Source of the DNA: Naegleria gruberi
Lineage: Eukaryota
Assembly: GCA_000004985.1 (NCBI GenBank)
Contig: GG739031.1
Length of the DNA: 36,911 nt
Direction: 5' to 3' (one strand)
The notes under the pieces are model-generated. The model saw only the letters and a list, made by a program, of their open reading frames with translations. It was not told the DNA's origin and ran no database searches. The position numbers were made by a program, and so were the translations under genes. Below, piece after piece: positions 1,093 through 36,911 of this stretch. Within the stretch, counting starts at the first letter, position 1. Every line of letters starts with the position of its first letter.

Positions 1093-4000
1093 NNNNNNNN
1101 NNNNNNNNNNNNNNNNNNNNNNNNNNNNNNNNNNNNNNNNNNNNNNNNNNNNNNNNNNNNNNNNNNNNNNNNNNNNNNNNNNNNNNNNNNNNNNNNNNNN
1201 NNNNNNNNNNNNNNNNNNNNNNNNNNNNNNNNNNNNNNNNNNNNNNNNNNNNNNNNNNNNNNNNNNNNNNNNNNNNNNNNNNNNNNNNNNNNNNNNNNNN
1301 NNNNNNNNNNNNNNNNNNNNNNNNNNNNNNNNNNNNNNNNNNNNNNNNNNNNNNNNNNNNNNNNNNNNNNNNNNNNNNNNNNNNNNNNNNNNNNNNNNNN
1401 NNNNNNNNNNNNNNNNNNNNNNNNNNNNNNNNNNNNNNNNNNNNNNNNNNNNNNNNNNNNNNNNNNNNNNNNNNNNNNNNNNNNNNNNNNNNNNNNNNNN
1501 NNNNNNNNNNNNNNNNNNNNNNNNNNNNNNNNNNNNNNNNNNNNNNNNNNNNNNNNNNNNNNNNNNNNNNNNNNNNNNNNNNNNNNNNNNNNNNNNNNNN
1601 NNNNNNNNNNNNNNNNNNNNNNNNNNNNNNNNNNNNNNNNNNNNNNNNNNNNNNNNNNNNNNNNNNNNNNNNNNNNNNNNNNNNNNNNNNNNNNNNNNNN
1701 NNNNNNNNNNNNNNNNNNNNNNNNNNNNNNNNNNNNNNNNNNNNNNNNNNNNNNNNNNNNNNNNNNNNNNNNNNNNNNNNNNNNNNNNNNNNNNNNNNNN
1801 NNNNNNNNNNNNNNNNNNNNNNNNNNNNNNNNNNNNNNNNNNNNNNNNNNNNNNNNNNNNNNNNNNNNNNNNNNNNNNNNNNNNNNNNNNNNNNNNNNNN
1901 NNNNNNNNNNNNNNNNNNNNNNNNNNNNNNNNNNNNNNNNNNNNNNNNNNNNNNNNNNNNNNNNNNNNNNNNNNNNNNNNNNNNNNNNNNNNNNNNNNNN
2001 NNNNNNNNNNNNNNNNNNNNNNNNNNNNNNNNNNNNNNNNNNNNNNNNNNNNNNNNNNNNNNNNNNNNNNNNNNNNNNNNNNNNNNNNNNNNNNNNNNNN
2101 NNNNNNNNNNNNNNNNNNNNNNNNNNNNNNNNNNNNNNNNNNNNNNNNNNNNNNNNNNNNNNNNNNNNNNNNNNNNNNNNNNNNNNNNNNNNNNNNNNNN
2201 NNNNNNNNNNNNNNNNNNNNNNNNNNNNNNNNNNNNNNNNNNNNNNNNNNNNNNNNNNNNNNNNNNNNNNNNNNNNNNNNNNNNNNNNNNNNNNNNNNNN
2301 NNNNNNNNNNNNNNNNNNNNNNNNNNNNNNNNNNNNNNNNNNNNNNNNNNNNNNNNNNNNNNNNNNNNNNNNNNNNNNNNNNNNNNNNNNNNNNNNNNNN
2401 NNNNNNNNNNNNNNNNNNNNNNNNNNNNNNNNNNNNNNNNNNNNNNNNNNNNNNNNNNNNNNNNNNNNNNNNNNNNNNNNNNNNNNNNNNNNNNNNNNNN
2501 NNNNNNNNNNNNNNNNNNNNNNNNNNNNNNNNNNNNNNNNNNNNNNNNNNNNNNNNNNNNNNNNNNNNNNNNNNNNNNNNNNNNNNNNNNNNNNNNNNNN
2601 NNNNNNNNNNNNNNNNNNNNNNNNNNNNNNNNNNNNNNNNNNNNNNNNNNNNNNNNNNNNNNNNNNNNNNNNNNNNNNNNNNNNNNNNNNNNNNNNNNNN
2701 NNNNNNNNNNNNNNNNNNNNNNNNNNNNNNNNNNNNNNNNNNNNNNNNNNNNNNNNNNNNNNNNNNNNNNNNNNNNNNNNNNNNNNNNNNNNNNNNNNNN
2801 NNNNNNNNNNNNNNNNNNNNNNNNNNNNNNNNNNNNNNNNNNNNNNNNNNNNNNNNNNNNNNNNNNNNNNNNNNNNNNNNNNNNNNNNNNNNNNNNNNNN
2901 NNNNNNNNNNNNNNNNNNNNNNNNNNNNNNNNNNNNNNNNNNNNNNNNNNNNNNNNNNNNNNNNNNNNNNNNNNNNNNNNNNNNNNNNNNNNNNNNNNNN
3001 NNNNNNNNNNNNNNNNNNNNNNNNNNNNNNNNNNNNNNNNNNNNNNNNNNNNNNNNNNNNNNNNNNNNNNNNNNNNNNNNNNNNNNNNNNNNNNNNNNNN
3101 NNNNNNNNNNNNNNNNNNNNNNNNNNNNNNNNNNNNNNNNNNNNNNNNNNNNNNNNNNNNNNNNNNNNNNNNNNNNNNNNNNNNNNNNNNNNNNNNNNNN
3201 NNNNNNNNNNNNNNNNNNNNNNNNNNNNNNNNNNNNNNNNNNNNNNNNNNNNNNNNNNNNNNNNNNNNNNNNNNNNNNNNNNNNNNNNNNNNNNNNNNNN
3301 NNNNNNNNNNNNNNNNNNNNNNNNNNNNNNNNNNNNNNNNNNNNNNNNNNNNNNNNNNNNNNNNNNNNNNNNNNNNNNNNNNNNNNNNNNNNNNNNNNNN
3401 NNNNNNNNNNNNNNNNNNNNNNNNNNNNNNNNNNNNNNNNNNNNNNNNNNNNNNNNNNNNNNNNNNNNNNNNNNNNNNNNNNNNNNNNNNNNNNNNNNNN
3501 NNNNNNNNNNNNNNNNNNNNNNNNNNNNNNNNNNNNNNNNNNNNNNNNNNNNNNNNNNNNNNNNNNNNNNNNNNNNNNNNNNNNNNNNNNNNNNNNNNNN
3601 NNNNNNNNNNNNNNNNNNNNNNNNNNNNNNNNNNNNNNNNNNNNNNNNNNNNNNNNNNNNNNNNNNNNNNNNNNNNNNNNNNNNNNNNNNNNNNNNNNNN
3701 NNNNNNNNNNNNNNNNNNNNNNNNNNNNNNNNNNNNNNNNNNNNNNNNNNNNNNNNNNNNNNNNNNNNNNNNNNNNNNNNNNNNNNNNNNNNNNNNNNNN
3801 NNNNNNNNNNNNNNNNNNNNNNNNNNNNNNNNNNNNNNNNNNNNNNNNNNNNNNNNNNNNNNNNNNNNNNNNNNNNNNNNNNNNNNNNNNNNNNNNNNNN
3901 NNNNNNNNNNNNNNNNNNNNNNNNNNNNNNNNNNNNNNNNNNNNNNNNNNNNNNNNNNNNNNNNNNNNNNNNNNNNNNNNNNNNNNNNNNNNNNNNNNNN

Positions 4001-7000
4001 NNNNNNNNNNNNNNNNNNNNNNNNNNNNNNNNNNNNNNNNNNNNNNNNNNNNNNNNNNNNNNNNNNNNNNNNNNNNNNNNNNNNNNNNNNNNNNNNNNNN
4101 NNNNNNNNNNNNNNNNNNNNNNNNNNNNNNNNNNNNNNNNNNNNNNNNNNNNNNNNNNNNNNNNNNNNNNNNNNNNNNNNNNNNNNNNNNNNNNNNNNNN
4201 NNNNNNNNNNNNNNNNNNNNNNNNNNNNNNNNNNNNNNNNNNNNNNNNNNNNNNNNNNNNNNNNNNNNNNNNNNNNNNNNNNNNNNNNNNNNNNNNNNNN
4301 NNNNNNNNNNNNNNNNNNNNNNNNNNNNNNNNNNNNNNNNNNNNNNNNNNNNNNNNNNNNNNNNNNNNNNNNNNNNNNNNNNNNNNNNNNNNNNNNNNNN
4401 NNNNNNNNNNNNNNNNNNNNNNNNNNNNNNNNNNNNNNNNNNNNNNNNNNNNNNNNNNNNNNNNNNNNNNNNNNNNNNNNNNNNNNNNNNNNNNNNNNNN
4501 NNNNNNNNNNNNNNNNNNNNNNNNNNNNNNNNNNNNNNNNNNNNNNNNNNNNNNNNNNNNNNNNNNNNNNNNNNNNNNNNNNNNNNNNNNNNNNNNNNNN
4601 NNNNNNNNNNNNNNNNNNNNNNNNNNNNNNNNNNNNNNNNNNNNNNNNNNNNNNNNNNNNNNNNNNNNNNNNNNNNNNNNNNNNNNNNNNNNNNNNNNNN
4701 NNNNNNNNNNNNNNNNNNNNNNNNNNNNNNNNNNNNNNNNNNNNNNNNNNNNNNNNNNNNNNNNNNNNNNNNNNNNNNNNNNNNNNNNNNNNNNNNNNNN
4801 NNNNNNNNNNNNNNNNNNNNNNNNNNNNNNNNNNNNNNNNNNNNNNNNNNNNNNNNNNNNNNNNNNNNNNNNNNNNNNNNNNNNNNNNNNNNNNNNNNNN
4901 NNNNNNNNNNNNNNNNNNNNNNNNNNNNNNNNNNNNNNNNNNNNNNNNNNNNNNNNNNNNNNNNNNNNNNNNNNNNNNNNNNNNNNNNNNNNNNNNNNNN
5001 NNNNNNNNNNNNNNNNNNNNNNNNNNNNNNNNNNNNNNNNNNNNNNNNNNNNNNNNNNNNNNNNNNNNNNNNNNNNNNNNNNNNNNNNNNNNNNNNNNNN
5101 NNNNNNNNNNNNNNNNNNNNNNNNNNNNNNNNNNNNNNNNNNNNNNNNNNNNNNNNNNNNNNNNNNNNNNNNNNNNNNNNNNNNNNNNNNNNNNNNNNNN
5201 NNNNNNNNNNNNNNNNNNNNNNNNNNNNNNNNNNNNNNNNNNNNNNNNNNNNNNNNNNNNNNNNNNNNNNNNNNNNNNNNNNNNNNNNNNNNNNNNNNNN
5301 NNNNNNNNNNNNNNNNNNNNNNNNNNNNNNNNNNNNNNNNNNNNNNNNNNNNNNNNNNNNNNNNNNNNNNNNNNNNNNNNNNNNNNNNNNNNNNNNNNNN
5401 NNNNNNNNNNNNNNNNNNNNNNNNNNNNNNNNNNNNNNNNNNNNNNNNNNNNNNNNNNNNNNNNNNNNNNNNNNNNNNNNNNNNNNNNNNNNNNNNNNNN
5501 NNNNNNNNNNNNNNNNNNNNNNNNNNNNNNNNNNNNNNNNNNNNNNNNNNNNNNNNNNNNNNNNNNNNNNNNNNNNNNNNNNNNNNNNNNNNNNNNNNNN
5601 NNNNNNNNNNNNNNNNNNNNNNNNNNNNNNNNNNNNNNNNNNNNNNNNNNNNNNNNNNNNNNNNNNNNNNNNNNNNNNNNNNNNNNNNNNNNNNNNNNNN
5701 NNNNNNNNNNNNNNNNNNNNNNNNNNNNNNNNNNNNNNNNNNNNNNNNNNNNNNNNNNNNNNNNNNNNNNNNNNNNNNNNNNNNNNNNNNNNNNNNNNNN
5801 NNNNNNNNNNNNNNNNNNNNNNNNNNNNNNNNNNNNNNNNNNNNNNNNNNNNNNNNNNNNNNNNNNNNNNNNNNNNNNNNNNNNNNNNNNNNNNNNNNNN
5901 NNNNNNNNNNNNNNNNNNNNNNNNNNNNNNNNNNNNNNNNNNNNNNNNNNNNNNNNNNNNNNNNNNNNNNNNNNNNNNNNNNNNNNNNNNNNNNNNNNNN
6001 NNNNNNNNNNNNNNNNNNNNNNNNNNNNNNNNNNNNNNNNNNNNNNNNNNNNNNNNNNNNNNNNNNNNNNNNNNNNNNNNNNNNNNNNNNNNNNNNNNNN
6101 NNNNNNNNNNNNNNNNNNNNNNNNNNNNNNNNNNNNNNNNNNNNNNNNNNNNNNNNNNNNNNNNNNNNNNNNNNNNNNNNNNNNNNNNNNNNNNNNNNNN
6201 NNNNNNNNNNNNNNNNNNNNNNNNNNNNNNNNNNNNNNNNNNNNNNNNNNNNNNNNNNNNNNNNNNNNNNNNNNNNNNNNNNNNNNNNNNNNNNNNNNNN
6301 NNNNNNNNNNNNNNNNNNNNNNNNNNNNNNNNNNNNNNNNNNNNNNNNNNNNNNNNNNNNNNNNNNNNNNNNNNNNNNNNNNNNNNNNNNNNNNNNNNNN
6401 NNNNNNNNNNNNNNNNNNNNNNNNNNNNNNNNNNNNNNNNNNNNNNNNNNNNNNNNNNNNNNNNNNNNNNNNNNNNNNNNNNNNNNNNNNNNNNNNNNNN
6501 NNNNNNNNNNNNNNNNNNNNNNNNNNNNNNNNNNNNNNNNNNNNNNNNNNNNNNNNNNNNNNNNNNNNNNNNNNNNNNNNNNNNNNNNNNNNNNNNNNNN
6601 NNNNNNNNNNNNNNNNNNNNNNNNNNNNNNNNNNNNNNNNNNNNNNNNNNNNNNNNNNNNNNNNNNNNNNNNNNNNNNNNNNNNNNNNNNNNNNNNNNNN
6701 NNNNNNNNNNNNNNNNNNNNNNNNNNNNNNNNNNNNNNNNNNNNNNNNNNNNNNNNNNNNNNNNNNNNNNNNNNNNNNNNNNNNNNNNNNNNNNNNNNNN
6801 NNNNNNNNNNNNNNNNNNNNNNNNNNNNNNNNNNNNNNNNNNNNNNNNNNNNNNNNNNNNNNNNNNNNNNNNNNNNNNNNNNNNNNNNNNNNNNNNNNNN
6901 NNNNNNNNNNNNNNNNNNNNNNNNNNNNNNNNNNNNNNNNNNNNNNNNNNNNNNNNNNNNNNNNNNNNNNNNNNNNNNNNNNNNNNNNNNNNNNNNNNNN

Positions 7001-27929: not shown

Positions 27930-28011
27930 ACATCCACAACATACTGTATGGCTGGGTCAATCCAATCACTCTTAGCAATGGAGAATACAATCTTAATATT
28001 ACAATAGTGTC

Positions 28012-28017
28012 TTTATT
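28012..28017 (-). promoter_or_regulatory. AATAAA polyadenylation signal overlapping the kinase stop codon
   Basis: The minus strand reads ...CTT CAA TAA AGA..., so AATAAA spans the TAA stop. Confidence 0.35.
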
Positions 28018-28906
28018 GAAGAGTGGAGAGACGATCCAAAATTTCATCAAGTGTGATTCTGTCAGCAGTGTTTAATCTGAGCATTGAAATTACCAATTCA
28101 ACGAGTCCTGTAGAGTATGGATAGTGTTGATTCTTGATAATGCTTGATCTGAGATGATTCATTACCTTTTCTTCATTACCATACTTCATAATGAGACCAT
28201 TAATCATGGTGACAGTATCAAAAGTAAGGAGTTGGTAACACGTTACACCCAAAGCAAAAATGTCAGCAGAAGCAAACATGGCAGTATTTTCTTCCAATTC
28301 TTCAGAAATGTCCAAAAGTTCTGGTGGAATGAATTGAAGAGAACCAGCTTGTTGAATATCACTTGCAGAATCACTGACTGATTTGGATAAACGGAATCCA
28401 ATTAAAACAGTGTCAATATTTTCAGAAGGATCCCATTCTCTCAGTAAAATATTATGTGGTTTGATGTTTCTGTGAACAATCTTGTGTTTGTTCATGTATT
28501 GGAGGGTACCAATGATTTGAGAAATAAACTTCTTAATGACTGCTTCTTTCAAAACAACTTTTTGTTTGATAAGGCTCTCAAGACTTCCCTTGTCGTAGTA
28601 ATCCATTTCCACACAGAGCGTACTCTTGTTTGTAAGATCGTTTGAGTTTTGGTTATTCTCTGGAATTTTGCATTTCAAAACAGCAACATCTCTAACACCA
28701 ATAATGTGGTCTTGTCTTAATTTGATTAAATTCATGGCTGATTTGAGAGACTTGTTGAGAGCTTCGGTACTAAAGAAATCTACCAATTTTACAGCAATTA
28801 CTGGAGGATCATCTTTTCCTCTATTAAATTTCTTTGCCTTGTATACATATCCGTTAGTTCCCTTGCCTAAAAGTTGCATCTTTCTATATCTTTCCTTCAA
28901 AATCAT
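28013..28906 (-). CDS. Protein-kinase-fold domain, predicted catalytically inactive (pseudokinase); the N-terminus may continue into the 50-N gap
   Basis: Motifs present in order: glycine loop LGKGTNGYVY; VAIK-like IAVK with Lys40 (codon 28787-28789); catalytic loop HRNIKPHN (28466-28474) where HRD-Asp is Asn; the DFG position reads IGFR (~28391-28399) with no Asp; APE-like FIPPE; subdomain IX D(IFALG); subdomain XI Arg (RITLDEI). The frame upstream of the Met at 28906 is still open (Glu) at the gap edge. TAA stop at 28013-28015. Confidence 0.75.
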   Translation of the reverse strand: MILKERYRKMQLLGKGTNGYVYKAKKFNRGKDDPPVIAVKLVDFFSTEALNKSLKSAMNLIKLRQDHIIGVRDVAVLKCKIPENNQNSNDLTNKSTLCVEMDYYDKGSLESLIKQKVVLKEAVIKKFISQIIGTLQYMNKHKIVHRNIKPHNILLREWDPSENIDTVLIGFRLSKSVSDSASDIQQAGSLQFIPPELLDISEELEENTAMFASADIFALGVTCYQLLTFDTVTMINGLIMKYGNEEKVMNHLRSSIIKNQHYPYSTGLVELVISMLRLNTADRITLDEILDRLSTLQ

Positions 28907-28909
28907 TTC

Positions 28910-28959
28910 NNNNNNNNNNNNNNNNNNNNNNNNNNNNNNNNNNNNNNNNNNNNNNNNNN
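28910..28959. other. Run of 50 N (conventional unknown-size scaffold gap)
   Basis: Exactly 50 n. Reading frames on either side cannot be related through it. Confidence 1.
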
Positions 28960-29948
28960 ATGCATCTAGAAATCAACTGGAGTAGAAATCCAGTTGGAGA
29001 AGGAGTAAAGGTTGATTCAGTTACTCTAGGAACTGATGGAGAATGCGGTCTATTATTGATTGATGGAGGATATTGAGGAGGTAAAGTACTAGACACGCTA
29101 TTATAGAGTGGTGGAGCAGTTGATTGGGCAAATGGTTGTGTTTGAAGGAAATAGTTTGGTGGTGGTGGTTGAATAGGTTGATAGGTTTGAGGTTGCGCAT
29201 TTGAGAGTATTGGTTGATAGATAGATTGAGCTTGTTGGAATGTGTAAGAAGGAGGAGGTTGATTAAGAGTTGGTTGGTTAATAATCAAATTGCCTTGGTA
29301 TGAAGGAGGTGAAACAATTTGAGGTTGAGGCACATTCCCATATACAAGTGCATTCAAATCAATTCCGTTATGTTTGACTCTTTCTTCGCAGGTCAATCCA
29401 AATTCATCTCTTATATACATATTTGCTCCATTTTTGATTAATGTCTTGACAACATTCCAGTGTTTGCATTGAATGGCAACTTGAAGAGAATTCATGTTGC
29501 GATCCATAACTTTCAAATCAACTTGAGCTCCATGTTTTATCAACCATTCAACTGCCTCTGGATTGTTATGTTTAGATAATGCATAGAGTGGTGTTTCACG
29601 TTCTTGATTCAAACAATCCACAATGAGAATGTTATGTTTAAGATTCTTAGTAATAAGATAATTAGCTCTTTCGAAATTCCTTATACGGAGAGCATTAATA
29701 AATTTTTCAACTTGAGTAGCAATTACTTGATTAACAATAATGTCCATGCTTGGATTTGTTGGAATGGTAACTGTTTTTGGCTTGGCACCCATTCTAATGA
29801 GATAGGAAGCAAATGGAATAAGATTTCTTTCCATACAATATTGTAAAATACTTCTTCCATAAATTATTCCATTAGTATTGCCTCCTCTTCTAATGAGGAA
29901 TTTCAACATTTTCATATTTACAGAATCTACAGCTACACCAAGAGCAGT
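28960..29948 (-). CDS. Exon 2 of an ankyrin-repeat protein: about four ANK repeats followed by a P/Q-rich low-complexity tail with four PPxY motifs; 3' end lost in the gap
   Basis: ANK-like units: TALGVAVDSVNMKMLKFLIRRGGNTN; GIIYGRSILQYCMERNLIPFASYLIRMGAKPK; ETPLYALSKHNNPEAVEWLIKHGAQVDLKV; NSLQVAIQCKHWNVVKTLIKNGANMYIRDEFGLT. The tail (~28989-29336) carries PPSY, PPPSY, PPPNY and PPQY. The frame is open to the gap edge (…SPTGFLLQLISRC). The exon starts right after a TAG acceptor, so the in-frame stop upstream of the track's 'M' at 29915 is the acceptor itself. Confidence 0.72.
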
Positions 29949-30092
29949 CTAATTTCCGTTTAATCCATTATTGTAAATTAAAATTCATTTCAATCACCAT
30001 TAAAATCTTCATATTAGAATTTTAAATACTTACGCACTAATCATCAATTAATTTATCAGTTAAATTATAAAGAAATATGAAAATTTACTTAC
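29949..30092 (-). other. Spliceosomal intron, 144 nt, ~25% GC (GTAAGT...AAATTAG)
   Basis: On the minus strand ...GAT ACT AGT GGA|GTAAGTAAATTTTC... ends in ...ggattaaacggaaatTAG|ACT GCT CTT GGT. Both flanks are in phase 0. Splicing joins ...INDCDTSG|TALGVAVDSVN... and completes an ankyrin repeat across the junction. The unspliced frame reaches a stop after 10 codons. Confidence 0.65.
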
Positions 30093-30548
30093 TCCACTAG
30101 TATCACAATCATTTATTCCGGCTTCTCTGTTATTGATCATGGCTTCAACCATTTCATAATTTCCCTCCCGAACCATCTTTAAAAGCAAGCTAATCTTTCC
30201 ATTGTTACCTTGTTGATAATTATTGTTAGCACAATTACTAGTATTACTACTCGTATTCATACCACTCGAATTATTATTAATATTATTAATATTATTATTA
30301 TAATTATTATTGCTACCCGGAAGAGAAGCTTGTCCAGATCCACCCGATCCCATCGCCATGCCCATCGAAGCAACCATAAAGGACGAAGATGACAATGGAC
30401 TCGTTGTCGTAGTGGTTGTTGTTGTTAGTAGTGGTGAGGAGGGTTTTTCATCAGCACCTCCTCCTGCTAAATCATCTTGTTGTTTTCCACCATCATCATT
30501 GCTCGAACTGGAGAGTTTCATTTTTTGTCGTAGTGTTTGAAAGACCAT
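30093..30548 (-). CDS. Exon 1 of the ankyrin-repeat protein: S/T/N-rich low-complexity N-terminus plus the first ANK repeat; start at 30548, or at the second Met at 30521
   Basis: The protein reads MVFQTLRQKMKLSSSSNDDGG...PLLTTTTTTTTSPLSSSS...NNNYNNNINNINNNSSG...GKISLLLKMVREGNYEMVEAMINNREAGINDCDTSG. Exactly 152 codons fit between 30548 and the donor at 30093. The second ATG (30519-30521) has a better A-rich context (aaaaATGaaa) than the first (cacgATGgtc). Confidence 0.6.
30219..30425 (-). repeat. Coding low-complexity region: (Thr)8 at 30402-30425 and an Asn-rich tract at ~30219-30314
   Basis: An ACN x8 codon run, and an AAT-dominated tract NNNYNNNINNINNNSSGMNTSSNTSNCANNNYQQGNNG. Confidence 0.6.
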
Positions 30549-30661
30549 CGTGATGCAAAGTTCATGTGTTGTTGTAGTTGATTGTCTATTGTTGTTGTTG
30601 GTGATGAAAGTTGTTGGTTAAAGAAAGTTTGGAGGGGTTGGTGTTGATCTTCCGAAAGAAG

Positions 30662-30668
30662 CTGAAAA
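30662..30668 (-). promoter_or_regulatory. TTTTCAG acceptor-like site 113 nt upstream of ATG(30548); candidate 5'UTR or trans-splice acceptor
   Basis: The minus strand reads tctttcgTTTTCAG|cttctttcgg..., a strong pyrimidine-tract acceptor with no detectable upstream exon in the readable sequence. Confidence 0.2.
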
Positions 30669-30821
30669 CGAAAGACTATTTTTTTTGTTTTTTGGCCAAG
30701 TCACTTGCCAAATAGAAGGCACATGTGAAAGGTGAATTAATTTTGGTATTTGTTGTGAATATGGGAGTGGATTTGATTGGTTGGACAGAAAGTTTGTGAA
30801 TATCTATGAACAACAAGTTCA

Positions 30822-31154: not shown

Positions 31155-34100
31155 NNNNNNNNNNNNNNNNNNNNNNNNNNNNNNNNNNNNNNNNNNNNNN
31201 NNNNNNNNNNNNNNNNNNNNNNNNNNNNNNNNNNNNNNNNNNNNNNNNNNNNNNNNNNNNNNNNNNNNNNNNNNNNNNNNNNNNNNNNNNNNNNNNNNNN
31301 NNNNNNNNNNNNNNNNNNNNNNNNNNNNNNNNNNNNNNNNNNNNNNNNNNNNNNNNNNNNNNNNNNNNNNNNNNNNNNNNNNNNNNNNNNNNNNNNNNNN
31401 NNNNNNNNNNNNNNNNNNNNNNNNNNNNNNNNNNNNNNNNNNNNNNNNNNNNNNNNNNNNNNNNNNNNNNNNNNNNNNNNNNNNNNNNNNNNNNNNNNNN
31501 NNNNNNNNNNNNNNNNNNNNNNNNNNNNNNNNNNNNNNNNNNNNNNNNNNNNNNNNNNNNNNNNNNNNNNNNNNNNNNNNNNNNNNNNNNNNNNNNNNNN
31601 NNNNNNNNNNNNNNNNNNNNNNNNNNNNNNNNNNNNNNNNNNNNNNNNNNNNNNNNNNNNNNNNNNNNNNNNNNNNNNNNNNNNNNNNNNNNNNNNNNNN
31701 NNNNNNNNNNNNNNNNNNNNNNNNNNNNNNNNNNNNNNNNNNNNNNNNNNNNNNNNNNNNNNNNNNNNNNNNNNNNNNNNNNNNNNNNNNNNNNNNNNNN
31801 NNNNNNNNNNNNNNNNNNNNNNNNNNNNNNNNNNNNNNNNNNNNNNNNNNNNNNNNNNNNNNNNNNNNNNNNNNNNNNNNNNNNNNNNNNNNNNNNNNNN
31901 NNNNNNNNNNNNNNNNNNNNNNNNNNNNNNNNNNNNNNNNNNNNNNNNNNNNNNNNNNNNNNNNNNNNNNNNNNNNNNNNNNNNNNNNNNNNNNNNNNNN
32001 NNNNNNNNNNNNNNNNNNNNNNNNNNNNNNNNNNNNNNNNNNNNNNNNNNNNNNNNNNNNNNNNNNNNNNNNNNNNNNNNNNNNNNNNNNNNNNNNNNNN
32101 NNNNNNNNNNNNNNNNNNNNNNNNNNNNNNNNNNNNNNNNNNNNNNNNNNNNNNNNNNNNNNNNNNNNNNNNNNNNNNNNNNNNNNNNNNNNNNNNNNNN
32201 NNNNNNNNNNNNNNNNNNNNNNNNNNNNNNNNNNNNNNNNNNNNNNNNNNNNNNNNNNNNNNNNNNNNNNNNNNNNNNNNNNNNNNNNNNNNNNNNNNNN
32301 NNNNNNNNNNNNNNNNNNNNNNNNNNNNNNNNNNNNNNNNNNNNNNNNNNNNNNNNNNNNNNNNNNNNNNNNNNNNNNNNNNNNNNNNNNNNNNNNNNNN
32401 NNNNNNNNNNNNNNNNNNNNNNNNNNNNNNNNNNNNNNNNNNNNNNNNNNNNNNNNNNNNNNNNNNNNNNNNNNNNNNNNNNNNNNNNNNNNNNNNNNNN
32501 NNNNNNNNNNNNNNNNNNNNNNNNNNNNNNNNNNNNNNNNNNNNNNNNNNNNNNNNNNNNNNNNNNNNNNNNNNNNNNNNNNNNNNNNNNNNNNNNNNNN
32601 NNNNNNNNNNNNNNNNNNNNNNNNNNNNNNNNNNNNNNNNNNNNNNNNNNNNNNNNNNNNNNNNNNNNNNNNNNNNNNNNNNNNNNNNNNNNNNNNNNNN
32701 NNNNNNNNNNNNNNNNNNNNNNNNNNNNNNNNNNNNNNNNNNNNNNNNNNNNNNNNNNNNNNNNNNNNNNNNNNNNNNNNNNNNNNNNNNNNNNNNNNNN
32801 NNNNNNNNNNNNNNNNNNNNNNNNNNNNNNNNNNNNNNNNNNNNNNNNNNNNNNNNNNNNNNNNNNNNNNNNNNNNNNNNNNNNNNNNNNNNNNNNNNNN
32901 NNNNNNNNNNNNNNNNNNNNNNNNNNNNNNNNNNNNNNNNNNNNNNNNNNNNNNNNNNNNNNNNNNNNNNNNNNNNNNNNNNNNNNNNNNNNNNNNNNNN
33001 NNNNNNNNNNNNNNNNNNNNNNNNNNNNNNNNNNNNNNNNNNNNNNNNNNNNNNNNNNNNNNNNNNNNNNNNNNNNNNNNNNNNNNNNNNNNNNNNNNNN
33101 NNNNNNNNNNNNNNNNNNNNNNNNNNNNNNNNNNNNNNNNNNNNNNNNNNNNNNNNNNNNNNNNNNNNNNNNNNNNNNNNNNNNNNNNNNNNNNNNNNNN
33201 NNNNNNNNNNNNNNNNNNNNNNNNNNNNNNNNNNNNNNNNNNNNNNNNNNNNNNNNNNNNNNNNNNNNNNNNNNNNNNNNNNNNNNNNNNNNNNNNNNNN
33301 NNNNNNNNNNNNNNNNNNNNNNNNNNNNNNNNNNNNNNNNNNNNNNNNNNNNNNNNNNNNNNNNNNNNNNNNNNNNNNNNNNNNNNNNNNNNNNNNNNNN
33401 NNNNNNNNNNNNNNNNNNNNNNNNNNNNNNNNNNNNNNNNNNNNNNNNNNNNNNNNNNNNNNNNNNNNNNNNNNNNNNNNNNNNNNNNNNNNNNNNNNNN
33501 NNNNNNNNNNNNNNNNNNNNNNNNNNNNNNNNNNNNNNNNNNNNNNNNNNNNNNNNNNNNNNNNNNNNNNNNNNNNNNNNNNNNNNNNNNNNNNNNNNNN
33601 NNNNNNNNNNNNNNNNNNNNNNNNNNNNNNNNNNNNNNNNNNNNNNNNNNNNNNNNNNNNNNNNNNNNNNNNNNNNNNNNNNNNNNNNNNNNNNNNNNNN
33701 NNNNNNNNNNNNNNNNNNNNNNNNNNNNNNNNNNNNNNNNNNNNNNNNNNNNNNNNNNNNNNNNNNNNNNNNNNNNNNNNNNNNNNNNNNNNNNNNNNNN
33801 NNNNNNNNNNNNNNNNNNNNNNNNNNNNNNNNNNNNNNNNNNNNNNNNNNNNNNNNNNNNNNNNNNNNNNNNNNNNNNNNNNNNNNNNNNNNNNNNNNNN
33901 NNNNNNNNNNNNNNNNNNNNNNNNNNNNNNNNNNNNNNNNNNNNNNNNNNNNNNNNNNNNNNNNNNNNNNNNNNNNNNNNNNNNNNNNNNNNNNNNNNNN
34001 NNNNNNNNNNNNNNNNNNNNNNNNNNNNNNNNNNNNNNNNNNNNNNNNNNNNNNNNNNNNNNNNNNNNNNNNNNNNNNNNNNNNNNNNNNNNNNNNNNNN

Positions 34101-34478
34101 NNNNNNNNNNNNNNNNNNNNNNNNNNNNNNNNNNNNNNNNNNNNNNNNNNNNNNNNNNNNNNNNNNNNNNNNNNNNNNNNNNNNNNNNNNNNNNNNNNNN
34201 NNNNNNNNNNNNNNNNNNNNNNNNNNNNNNNNNNNNNNNNNNNNNNNNNNNNNNNNNNNNNNNNNNNNNNNNNNNNNNNNNNNNNNNNNNNNNNNNNNNN
34301 NNNNNNNNNNNNNNNNNNNNNNNNNNNNNNNNNNNNNNNNNNNNNNNNNNNNNNNNNNNNNNNNNNNNNNNNNNNNNNNNNNNNNNNNNNNNNNNNNNNN
34401 NNNNNNNNNNNNNNNNNNNNNNNNNNNNNNNNNNNNNNNNNNNNNNNNNNNNNNNNNNNNNNNNNNNNNNNNNNNNNN
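31155..34478. other. Run of 3,324 N
   Basis: Uninterrupted n characters. The 1,100-1,200-aa ORFs spanning it in the supplied track are poly-X artefacts. Confidence 1.
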
Positions 34479-35653: not shown

Positions 35654-36405
35654 AATCTTCCTTTCTTCACAAATCTTATTCGCTGATTTAATATCTTGCT
35701 GAATTGGAACATATGTTGTTGAAAGAGTGAAAATGAGTCCTTCTCCAAAAAGGCAGAATTCATTGCTAAAGGGCAGTATAATCAACAGCATTTTACAAGT
35801 TCAGTTCACAGAACATTTGGAGGTGCCTTCTTTACGGAAACAAATCTTGCTAATCCTTTAACACCTGCAGAACAAGTTCAATAGAATCCATTACGTATTA
35901 TGAACATTGTCAATTATGTGATCTTCTTGATCTGAATGAACCCTTAAATTCAGGACAATGTATTGCTGGCAGCTATGTAGCGAGTAAGAAACGAGATGCT
36001 TTGATACAAAAACCAAGAAGGTTTGTCAGGTTGAGTCCTTTTCTAATGACTTTTATTCAATACAGCTTGCTATTGAAGATACATTTAAAAAAGACTTTAT
36101 TATTTTCAAGACTTGGTGAAATTTCAAATAGTTTCGAAAAAATTTACAAGTCGAGCTTGGGCAATTCTACATTTCGCTCACATCGCAAAAATCCATTAAC
36201 AAAAAATCGTTAAAAGTCAAGCCAGCATTTGCGAAAAGGGTTTAGCGGGAATATAAGTATCTAAGTATTTAATTATTTATTCTTGTACTATTATTATTTA
36301 ATATGAAGAATGAATAACCACTAAAGATTAAAATTGTTTCATTGTTTATTAAGTTCATAACTTAATTTCCAAGTCAAAAAAAACGAACAACTACCTTAAC
36401 CTTAC

Positions 36406-36495
36406 ATGAAGATGAGGATGGTCTTGGTGGCAGGGGTTTCTCTCAGAAAAAACGAAAGTTTTTGGATCATTATTCATCAAACTTTATTAAACCGA
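36406..36495 (+). CDS. Candidate first coding exon of the F-box gene (MKMRMVLVAGVSLRKNESFWIIIHQTLLNR)
   Basis: An ATG at 36406 lies 40 nt after the in-frame stop that opens the downstream long frame. The 30 codons end at a CGA|GTAAAT donor. The long F-box frame has no Met before the F-box, so an upstream start exon is needed. Confidence 0.3.
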
Positions 36496-36542
36496 GTAAA
36501 TATTTAATTCTCTCTCAAGAAAATCTTTGCTCTGATAAACAG
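36496..36542 (+). other. Candidate 47-nt intron (GTAAAT...AAACAG)
   Basis: It joins phase-0 exon 1 to the long open frame at 36543. The acceptor is weak and the intron is short, so this is speculative. Confidence 0.3.
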
Positions 36543-36911
36543 CAGGATGACAAAAATTCACACTTTCGAGAAACAATAATTATTCCAGAGAGAAATAATT
36601 ACAATATTCTTTCCCATAGCCAAATAGTTGATGATTGTTGGCAGATTATTTTTGATTTTGTGGAAAAGATTGAAGATAGGAAGAGTATGATTCTTGTGTG
36701 CAAACATTGGGCCAACATGTTTATTCAACCATTTATTGGATATTGTTATGAGATTTATGACGAAAATAGACATTTGAATGGATTGACAGAATATGTCGAA
36801 GAGAATGGAGAAGATGGATTTGTTTGTGAGGGAGGAATGTTTTTTACTGAAATGGCAACTTGGAAAGAACCTCTTTGCTATGATGGTCTGGAAGAGGAGG
36901 ATACTCTGGAT
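36543..36911 (+). CDS. F-box-like protein, 5' portion; the frame is open to the last base of the window
   Basis: The protein reads QDDKNSHFRETIIIPERNNYNILSHSQIVDDCWQIIFDFVEKIEDRKSMILVCKHWANMFIQPFIGYCYEIYDENRHLNGLTEYVEENGEDGFVCEGGMFFTEMATWKEPLCYDGLEEEDTLD. The segment at ~36627-36728 matches the F-box pattern (W..I...L....L..VCK.W..L). There is no stop in 123 codons, and the same frame is open back to 36366. Confidence 0.55.

Follow-up and report, generated by a model that had tools for sequence, protein, structure and literature searches.

A Naegleria gruberi gene interrupted by an assembly gap very probably encodes a single protein with ankyrin repeats, a PPxY-bearing linker and a pseudokinase domain

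Two open reading frames (ORFs), one encoding ankyrin (ANK) repeats and the other a kinase-fold domain, lie on either side of a run of N in a scaffold of Naegleria gruberi (GenBank assembly GCA_000004985.1, contig GG739031.1), which raises the question of whether they are two genes or the two parts of one. The window, that is, the whole stretch of DNA analysed, is 36,911 nt long, makes up one entire small scaffold of the 2010 N. gruberi assembly and is largely unreadable: runs of N occupy positions 1093–27929, 28910–28959 and 31155–34478, a total of 30,211 N or 82 %. The readable pieces have a G+C content of 34–35 %; the N. gruberi assembly is described as 35 % G+C, with 1,977 contigs in 784 scaffolds (PMC6831594). 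Judged from sequence comparisons, positions 30548–28013 of the minus strand represent, with very high probability, one N. gruberi gene whose coding sequence is cut by an assembly gap and not by a gene boundary. High confidence also attaches to the explanation as a whole, which comprises one gene, a gap artefact, an ANK-PPxY-kinase-fold protein lacking catalytic residues and a proposed scaffold role. The locus is annotated as NAEGRDRAFT_76568, and its GenBank product (XP_002668518.1, EFC35774.1, UniProt D2W579; 736 amino acids, ‘predicted protein’) is 100 % identical to the kinase ORF of the window in an exhaustive HMMER protein search. GenBank already models the locus as one gene, and the ANK-kinase linkage is thus not new.

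Direct reading of the window bears out the observations on which a single gene had been proposed from the letters alone (the original prediction). Both ORFs are located on the minus strand, at the positions predicted. The ankyrin ORF is stop-free from 29948 and still open where it meets the gap at 28960, with two bases (AT) left over. The frame beyond the gap is open from its first base, GAA ATG (E-M, 28909–28904) being followed by I-L-K-E-R-Y, and runs to a TAA at 28015–28013; the Glu codon had been correctly placed one codon before Met 28906. As predicted, no AATAAA separates the two ORFs. On the minus strand within 27930–30700 this hexamer occurs only twice, in exon 1 (30117–30112) and on the kinase stop (28017–28012), with none in the readable sequence between the ANK region and the gap. 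The second of these possibly serves the whole gene as its poly(A) signal; readable sequence stops 83 nt downstream of it, at the 26.8-kb gap.

The single-gene proposal is further supported by a near-identical copy in the same genome, by N. fowleri, by a metagenomic relative and by the conservation of the E-M residues. The copy is a second N. gruberi protein, NAEGRDRAFT_75509 (XP_002669571.1, EFC36827.1, UniProt D2W297; 834 amino acids), encoded on a 182,562-bp scaffold on which the junction is free of gaps. Exon 1 of the window agrees with it at 143/143 residues, exon 2 at 317/319 as far as ...TFTPSPT, and the post-gap frame, E-M included, at 298/298; the readable parts thus hold the same protein bar two substitutions. 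Where the window has its gap, XP_002669571.1 is continuous, with 73 residues between ...SPT and EMILKERY that read VISTPVDVLDCIPQPSQVSPVSSETSPPEDSPIPVPNFDAGSPPITSSDSMAVHYVGDENREHDFDPEEPKSL. The two N. gruberi proteins also carry the same style of JGI model (MKLSS start, extra Cys). The only well-readable gene of the window is 99.7 % identical in protein to NAEGRDRAFT_75509; the 36.9-kb scaffold probably represents that same locus, left as an unmerged haplotype or assembled redundantly, and not a separate gene. Alternatively, it may be a very recent duplicate of that locus; the comparison is by protein only.

Continuity across the junction is also evident outside N. gruberi. The N. fowleri orthologue, FDP41_013621 (XP_044565120.1, 844 amino acids), lies on an 840-kb nanopore/Illumina contig (VFQX01000019.1), and the 8,977 bp fetched from it contain 0 N. 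A single 624-codon open frame (3593–5464 of this piece) covers the protein from the second ankyrin repeat onwards, PPxY linker included, to ...LIGFRLSKST in the kinase domain, and ORF-level calls of 611 amino acids from independent read assemblies are continuous across the junction as well. A tblastx comparison shows the N. fowleri locus to be collinear with the window both before and after the gap. In the metagenomic relative, recovered from two independent assemblies (JGI 3300002220 and ENA ERZ27315067), ANK repeats, linker and kinase form one 590-codon ORF, preceded by an exon 1 that starts with MVF and ends at the same intron position. That position is shared throughout: the junction reads DLSG/TALG in N. 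fowleri (intron at approximately 3334–3592 of the fetched piece) and DSNG/NALG in the metagenomic relative. The N. lovaniensis orthologue, C9374_013456 (XP_044553865.1, 965 amino acids), has ANK repeats, PPxY linker and kinase in the same order. Orthologues in all three taxa therefore show the domain order that had been suggested as a check. An ANK domain N-terminal to a kinase is also present in active paralogues of Naegleria and Willaertia and in an ENA metagenome protein.

In all relatives the kinase domain is preceded by an acidic block, (I/V)(E/H)(V/A)xYxGDE(D/N)RxxDFx(K/P)EEPK(S/T)L(E/D)M(I/V)(L/M)KERY, and Met 28906 is thus an internal conserved residue and not a start. The block occupies residues ~517–536 of XP_002669571.1 and ~4850–4915 of the N. 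fowleri piece. Its core, YxGDE(D/N)RxxDFx(K/P)EEPK(S/T)L, matches no Pfam family; it may pack against the N-lobe as an N-terminal extension.

The recovery of these relatives depended on the query. A word-indexed protein search with the 298-residue kinase ORF alone returned one irrelevant match and missed the 736-residue model and all orthologues, whereas the same search with the exon 2 and kinase pieces joined, and the exhaustive HMMER search, recovered them. A negative result from the kinase-only word-indexed query is therefore not evidence of absence. Metagenome contigs scanned with the junction patterns [ED]M[IV][LM]KERY and G[ST]NGYVYK yielded distant kinases only (24–31 % identity) and none that closes the gap.

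The gap had been described as one of 50 N. A run of exactly 50 N is indeed present, yet the length of XP_002669571.1 implies a true gap of ~184 nt (~62 codons), provided that this copy is as long as the other. A length of 184 nt corresponds to the third base of an Ile codon plus 61 codons and thus has the required phase (length ≡ 1 mod 3). The gap would be expected to encode (I)PQPSQVSPVSSETSPPEDSPIPVPNFDAGSPPITSSDSMAVHYVGDENREHDFDPEEPKSL in frame. The N runs of 26,837 and 3,324 are clearly size estimates; 50 is, we infer, probably a floor value.

The contig end that borders the gap appears to be damaged. In the ORF frame, the 32 nt that lead up to the gap translate as GFLLQLISRC, in a shifted frame as ISTPVD. 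When aligned by eye to the XP_002669571.1 peptide, three single-base insertions turn ACTGGATTTCTACTCCAGTTGATTTCTAGATGCAT into ACT GTG ATT TCT ACT CCA GTT GAT GTT CTA GAT TGC AT, which encodes T-V-I-S-T-P-V-D-V-L-D-C-(I). Measured against that protein, the last approximately nine codons before the gap (GFLLQLISR) are probably garbled by three single-base deletions, and 28991–28960 would be expected to read ...ACTGTGATTTCTACTCCAGTTGATGTTCTAGATTGCAT once these are mended. A cluster of three single-base losses in the 32 nt that close a contig has the appearance of low-quality read ends; as the losses sum to one codon, the frame is correct again at the very edge of the gap.

The GenBank model can be rebuilt exactly: the coding sequence of XP_002668518.1 is the join of 30521–30093, 30036–30034, 29948–28978 and 28820–28013. 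The ‘intron’ between the last two segments removes LISRC and 30 open in-frame codons, EMILKERYRKMQLLGKGTNGYVYKAKKFNR, which encode β1, the glycine loop and β2; it serves solely to bridge the gap and bring the frame back into register. Two further features are shared by both N. gruberi JGI models. Each starts at the second Met (MKLSS, 30521 in the window), nine codons after 30548. Since MVF also starts the N. fowleri (MVFTGKK) and metagenomic (MVFFKSK) sequences, the annotated start is probably nine codons late. Each also carries a 3-nt micro-exon, TGC, which in the window lies inside intron 1 and is flanked by TTAG and GTAAGT. This adds a Cys (DTSG-C-TALG) that is found in no orthologue, whereas a single 144-nt intron gives the conserved D-x-S-G/T-A-L-G; the micro-exon is probably dubious in both models.

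Within the encoded protein, the S/T/N-rich low-complexity stretch of exon 1 is poorly conserved. The ankyrin domain is well supported by Pfam, with Ank_2 at E=4.9e-21 and 75.5 bits (cut-off 27.3), Ank at 2.9e-15, and Ank_3, Ank_4 and Ank_5 also above their cut-offs. It is ~50 % identical to that of N. fowleri, whose orthologue aligns as one 233-residue stretch to residues 110–358 of ankyrin-1/2. The five repeats originally counted are not borne out: the domain spans ~237 residues, which makes about seven.

The kinase-fold domain begins 8 residues after the gap and matches Pfam Pkinase (PF00069) almost from end to end (E=1.4e-32, 113.6 bits against a cut-off of 31.7; profile positions 1–259 of 263, post-gap residues 8–292). 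Alignment to TNIK shows that HRD has become HRN (minus strand, 28474–28466), that DFG has become GFR (28399–28391) and that the αC Glu has become Ala (the last codon of 28762–28736). Retained are the glycine loop GKGTNG (28867–28850), the β3 Lys within IAVK (28798–28787) and the catalytic-loop Asn. All five sequences compared, from four taxa, have HRN and GFR; at the αC position they have Ala, with Gly in one relative. The earlier pseudokinase call is thereby upheld: by sequence definition the domain is a pseudokinase. Between species it is 58–62 % identical (62 % in N. fowleri) and thus under constraint. A dN/dS comparison (ratio of non-synonymous to synonymous substitution) of N. gruberi with N. 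fowleri was discarded, as synonymous sites are expected to be saturated at 62 % amino acid identity.

The closest named relatives of the kinase domain are all heterolobosean (N. lovaniensis, N. fowleri and Willaertia magna), and the best solved structures are distant (TNIK/MINK, CDPK1, PKR and RIPK3, at E ~1e-11 to 1e-13). The active paralogues closest to this group keep HRD, DFG and the αC Glu and have no PPxY. These relationships indicate a lineage-specific kinase family, one branch of which has lost the catalytic residues. In UniRef, the orthologues of N. fowleri and N. lovaniensis bear the name ‘non-specific serine/threonine protein kinase’ despite their HRN and GFR, and automatic naming of this kind probably over-counts active kinases in Naegleria. 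Another N. lovaniensis paralogue, C9374_006567 (1039 amino acids), has three tandem kinase-fold domains; in a motif scan the first has HGD with DFG, the middle one HRD and DFG, and the third GGFG in place of DFG with no HRD-type match. It seems that degeneration of kinase domains has occurred repeatedly in this heterolobosean family.

Between the two folded domains, the linker carries five PPxY motifs on the minus strand: PPSY (29309–29298), PPSY (29255–29244), PPNY (29162–29151), PPLY (29114–29103) and PPQY (29081–29070). Four of these had been listed and are present; PPLY had been missed, so that the earlier count was one too low. Chance is a poor explanation for the cluster, as shuffled versions of the 136-residue linker contain 0.31 motifs on average and never as many as five in 10,000 trials. 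Both N. gruberi copies and N. fowleri have five, N. lovaniensis four and the metagenomic relative one, with none in the active-kinase paralogues. The first motif (SPPSY, directly after the ANK domain) is aligned in 4/5 sequences, while the remaining linker can barely be aligned; retention of a motif as the surrounding sequence diverges fits short linear motifs under selection. The linker is presumably disordered, to judge from its composition, and motif count and composition are together those of a PY-motif client, in which PPxY lies in an exposed disordered segment. The chances that the cluster is a set of functional short docking motifs are about even; that the partner is a WW domain is rather doubtful. 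The suggestion of a Nedd4-type E3 ligase as partner is doubtful: in a genomic survey of HECT ligases, with N. gruberi among the species covered, the C2-WW-HECT (Nedd4-type) architecture was confined to Opisthokonta and Apusozoa (PMC3673628), and a WW reader in Naegleria, if there is one, would belong to a different protein. The motifs may dock to some other WW-domain protein.

Three readings of the junction compete with a single gene cut by a gap. Two same-strand genes, an ANK/PPxY protein ending within the gap and a stand-alone pseudokinase starting at Met 28906, would fit the facts that the gap hides the junction and that an ATG stands one codon past it with a complete Pfam kinase domain downstream. 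This reading also gains from the phase of the two frames, since the literal 50 N leaves them out of register (2+50=52, leading into a frame that reads NDFEGKI and then a stop). However, the near-identical copy in the same genome is continuous, as are three other taxa, two of them verified as single ORFs on DNA; Met 28906 is internal, conserved and preceded by a conserved 20-residue block; and ~184 nt is too small for a terminator, an intergenic region and a promoter. Two genes are accordingly judged highly improbable. A scaffolding error, in which ANK and kinase contigs from different loci were wrongly joined, might be suspected in a scaffold with 82 % N whose pieces are linked by mate pairs alone, yet the order, the orientation and the near-exact identity to XP_002669571.1 on both sides fit a correct join, as does the collinearity with N. 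fowleri, and such an error is very improbable indeed. Scarcely any weight can be given to the third reading, that XP_002668518.1 is correct as it stands, with a real intron at 28977..28821 and a mature protein without β1, glycine loop and β2. Its GT...AG boundaries and restored frame speak for it. However, the 30 in-frame codons lost are the most conserved stretch of the N-lobe (G15, G17 and N19–K27 are invariant in three taxa) and are kept in XP_002669571.1, N. fowleri, N. lovaniensis and the metagenomic relative; there is no intron at this place in N. fowleri or the metagenomic relative, and the donor, GTTGAT, is weak and sits in the garbled contig end.

The nature of the kinase-fold domain is the other matter to be weighed. 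Should it be active in spite of its atypical residues, the gene would encode an ordinary ANK-kinase rather than a scaffold. The invariant GKGTNG loop, β3 Lys and catalytic-loop Asn suggest that nucleotide binding may be kept, and the databases name the orthologues as kinases, although this is an automatic name without a test behind it. Against this, the two catalytic aspartates and the αC Glu have given way to other residues throughout the genus, whereas the nearest paralogues retain HRD, DFG and Glu. An active kinase is therefore considered improbable, and it is likely that the domain transfers no phosphate and acts as a binding or allosteric module. Several points weigh against the explanation favoured here, that of one gene encoding an ANK-PPxY-pseudokinase scaffold. 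The phase of the frames across the literal 50 N, already mentioned, is one of them. The single-gene case is drawn from the near-identical copy and the orthologues and not from the gap DNA of this copy. The XP_002669571.1, N. fowleri and N. lovaniensis proteins are ab initio models, a concern that is lesser for N. fowleri and the metagenomic relative because their ORFs were checked on DNA. Replacement of the HRD Asp by Asn and loss of the DFG Asp are not always inactivating, and the atypical kinases CASK and WNK work without canonical residues. An AlphaFold2 model of the kinase domain (three-sequence alignment) has a mean predicted local distance difference test score of 54 and a predicted template modelling score of 0.47, too poor for fold comparison; its order of secondary structures is compatible with a kinase fold, no more. 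Finally, Nedd4-like ligases are reported only from Opisthokonta and Apusozoa (PMC3673628), and no WW-domain protein of Naegleria turned up, the proteome not having been scanned by domain.

Table 1. Features of the NAEGRDRAFT_76568 locus, in window coordinates
Feature	Coordinates	Strand	Basis and remarks
Exon 1	30093..30548	-	Direct reading; ATG 30548-30546, MVFQTL..., S/T/N-rich low complexity, first ankyrin repeat from ~30203
Intron 1, 144 nt, GTAAGT...AATTAG	29949..30092	-	Splits D-T-S-G / T-A-L-G within an ankyrin repeat
Ankyrin-repeat domain, interrupted by intron 1	29349..30203	-	Pfam Ank profiles; spliced residues ~116-352, ~7 repeats including C-terminal cap
P/Q/Y-rich linker with five PPxY	28992..29348	-	Motif scan and shuffling
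Contig end, probably garbled	28960..28991	-	Literal frame GFLLQLISRC+AT; VISTPVDVLDC+I in near-identical copy
Artificial intron of XP_002668518.1, 157 nt, GT...AG	28821..28977	-	Reconstruction of coding sequence; spans gap
Run of exactly 50 N	28910..28959	.	Direct reading; hides linker end and conserved acidic block ...HYVGDENREHDFDPEEPKSL
E-M (last two linker residues) and complete kinase-fold domain without catalytic residues	28016..28909	-	Pkinase profile, TNIK alignment
AATAAA overlapping TAA stop (CAATAAAG)	28012..28017	-	Direct reading

The orthologues in N. fowleri, N. lovaniensis and the metagenomic relative share with the window gene the domain order, the position of intron 1, the HRN, GFR and αC changes, the acidic block and PPxY motifs; they differ in the length and sequence of the linker, with one PPxY only in the metagenomic relative. 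The active ANK-kinase paralogues (N. lovaniensis C9374_005766, 981 amino acids; Willaertia magna ABK040_006408, 580 amino acids) likewise have ANK repeats N-terminal to a kinase of the same family (36–44 % identity), joined by a low-complexity linker, but keep HRD, DFG and the αC Glu and have no PPxY.

Among known systems, the closest in layout is ILK, in which N-terminal ankyrin repeats precede a C-terminal pseudokinase that serves as a scaffold in the ILK-PINCH-parvin complex. The order of domains and a likely non-catalytic scaffold role are shared. However, the kinase domain shows no orthology to that of ILK: ILK is absent from the 13 PDB sequences matched at E≤1e-10 by the kinase domain and from the best 60 matches of the full-length orthologue, and it has no PPxY linker. 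The architecture looks like one of independent origin, from an active heterolobosean ANK-kinase family and not from ILK. Proteins of the RIPK4, ANKK1 and DAPK1 type are catalytically competent and carry the kinase N-terminal to the ANK repeats. They resemble the window gene in having both domains in one chain and differ in the reversed order and in possessing the catalytic Asp residues that are missing here, which places the N. gruberi protein outside that group. PY-motif adaptors of Nedd4/Rsp5 ligases, such as the arrestin-related trafficking adaptors, also have several PPxY in a disordered region adjoining a folded protein-binding domain. The C2-WW-HECT ligases that they recruit, however, are those found only in Opisthokonta and Apusozoa by the survey (PMC3673628).

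Taken from N- to C-terminus, the protein consists of a low-complexity region, about seven ANK repeats, a P/Q/Y-rich linker with five PPxY, an acidic block (hidden in the gap) and a C-terminal kinase fold. It could act as a non-catalytic scaffold that brings together a partner bound by the ANK repeats, a partner bound by the pseudokinase and readers of the PPxY motifs. The pseudokinase partner may be one of the many active paralogous kinases, and the PPxY reader is unlikely to be a C2-WW-HECT ligase of the Nedd4 type. Such a scaffold would work like ILK without belonging to the ILK family.

Differences between the species are apparent around this gene. In N. fowleri an extra intron is present in the kinase domain after ...LIGFRLSKST (~5450–5620 of the fetched piece); it is found in neither N. 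gruberi nor the metagenomic relative, so that an intron must have been gained or lost within the genus. Immediately upstream, the orthologue of the metagenomic relative is flanked by a gene for a YccF-like membrane protein (2508–3137 of its contig), and an unannotated YccF-like gene is detected upstream in N. fowleri by tblastn (E=2.5e-22; 2147–2678 of the fetched piece). The N-terminal extension of N. lovaniensis C9374_013456 (residues ~40–140) appears to be a merged upstream YccF-like gene. No trace of this neighbour is present in the 600 readable bases upstream of the window gene, and in a tblastx comparison of the N. fowleri locus with the window all matches fall within the gene itself. 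On the plus strand of the window, an open frame of 182 codons (36366–36911) runs off the scaffold end, with a sub-threshold match to F-box_5 around ...ILVCKHWANMF... (21.6 bits against a cut-off of 25.5, E=1.6e-4). By tblastx it has no similarity to the F-box/leucine-rich-repeat gene downstream of the N. fowleri orthologue.

In the literature on ankyrin-pseudokinase-PPxY proteins, on the Naegleria kinome and pseudokinases and on PPxY in Naegleria, nothing was found on this gene. What has been found is an artefact of assembly and annotation at a gene already public in intact form, as XP_002669571.1 and its orthologues, and the new content is limited to a corrected gene model, an estimate of the size and content of the gap, and the recognition of a conserved PPxY pseudokinase group that is labelled as active kinase. 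XP_002668518.1 (D2W579) is mis-spliced and lacks the glycine loop, and should be replaced by or merged with XP_002669571.1. FDP41_013621 should be entered as a pseudokinase in kinome counts and drug-target lists of the pathogen N. fowleri. For the biology, the gain is modest and lies at the level of domain architecture: a conserved ANK/PPxY/pseudokinase scaffold would be present in a deep-branching eukaryote. The fullest form of the proposal, offered tentatively and considered unlikely, is that of a genus-conserved ANK/PPxY/dead-kinase scaffold, independent of ILK, whose PPxY motifs are recognised by a protein with a WW domain or another proline-recognition domain, the lineage being one from which Nedd4-type ligases are reportedly absent. 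If true, PY-motif signalling would exist outside Opisthokonta and Apusozoa.

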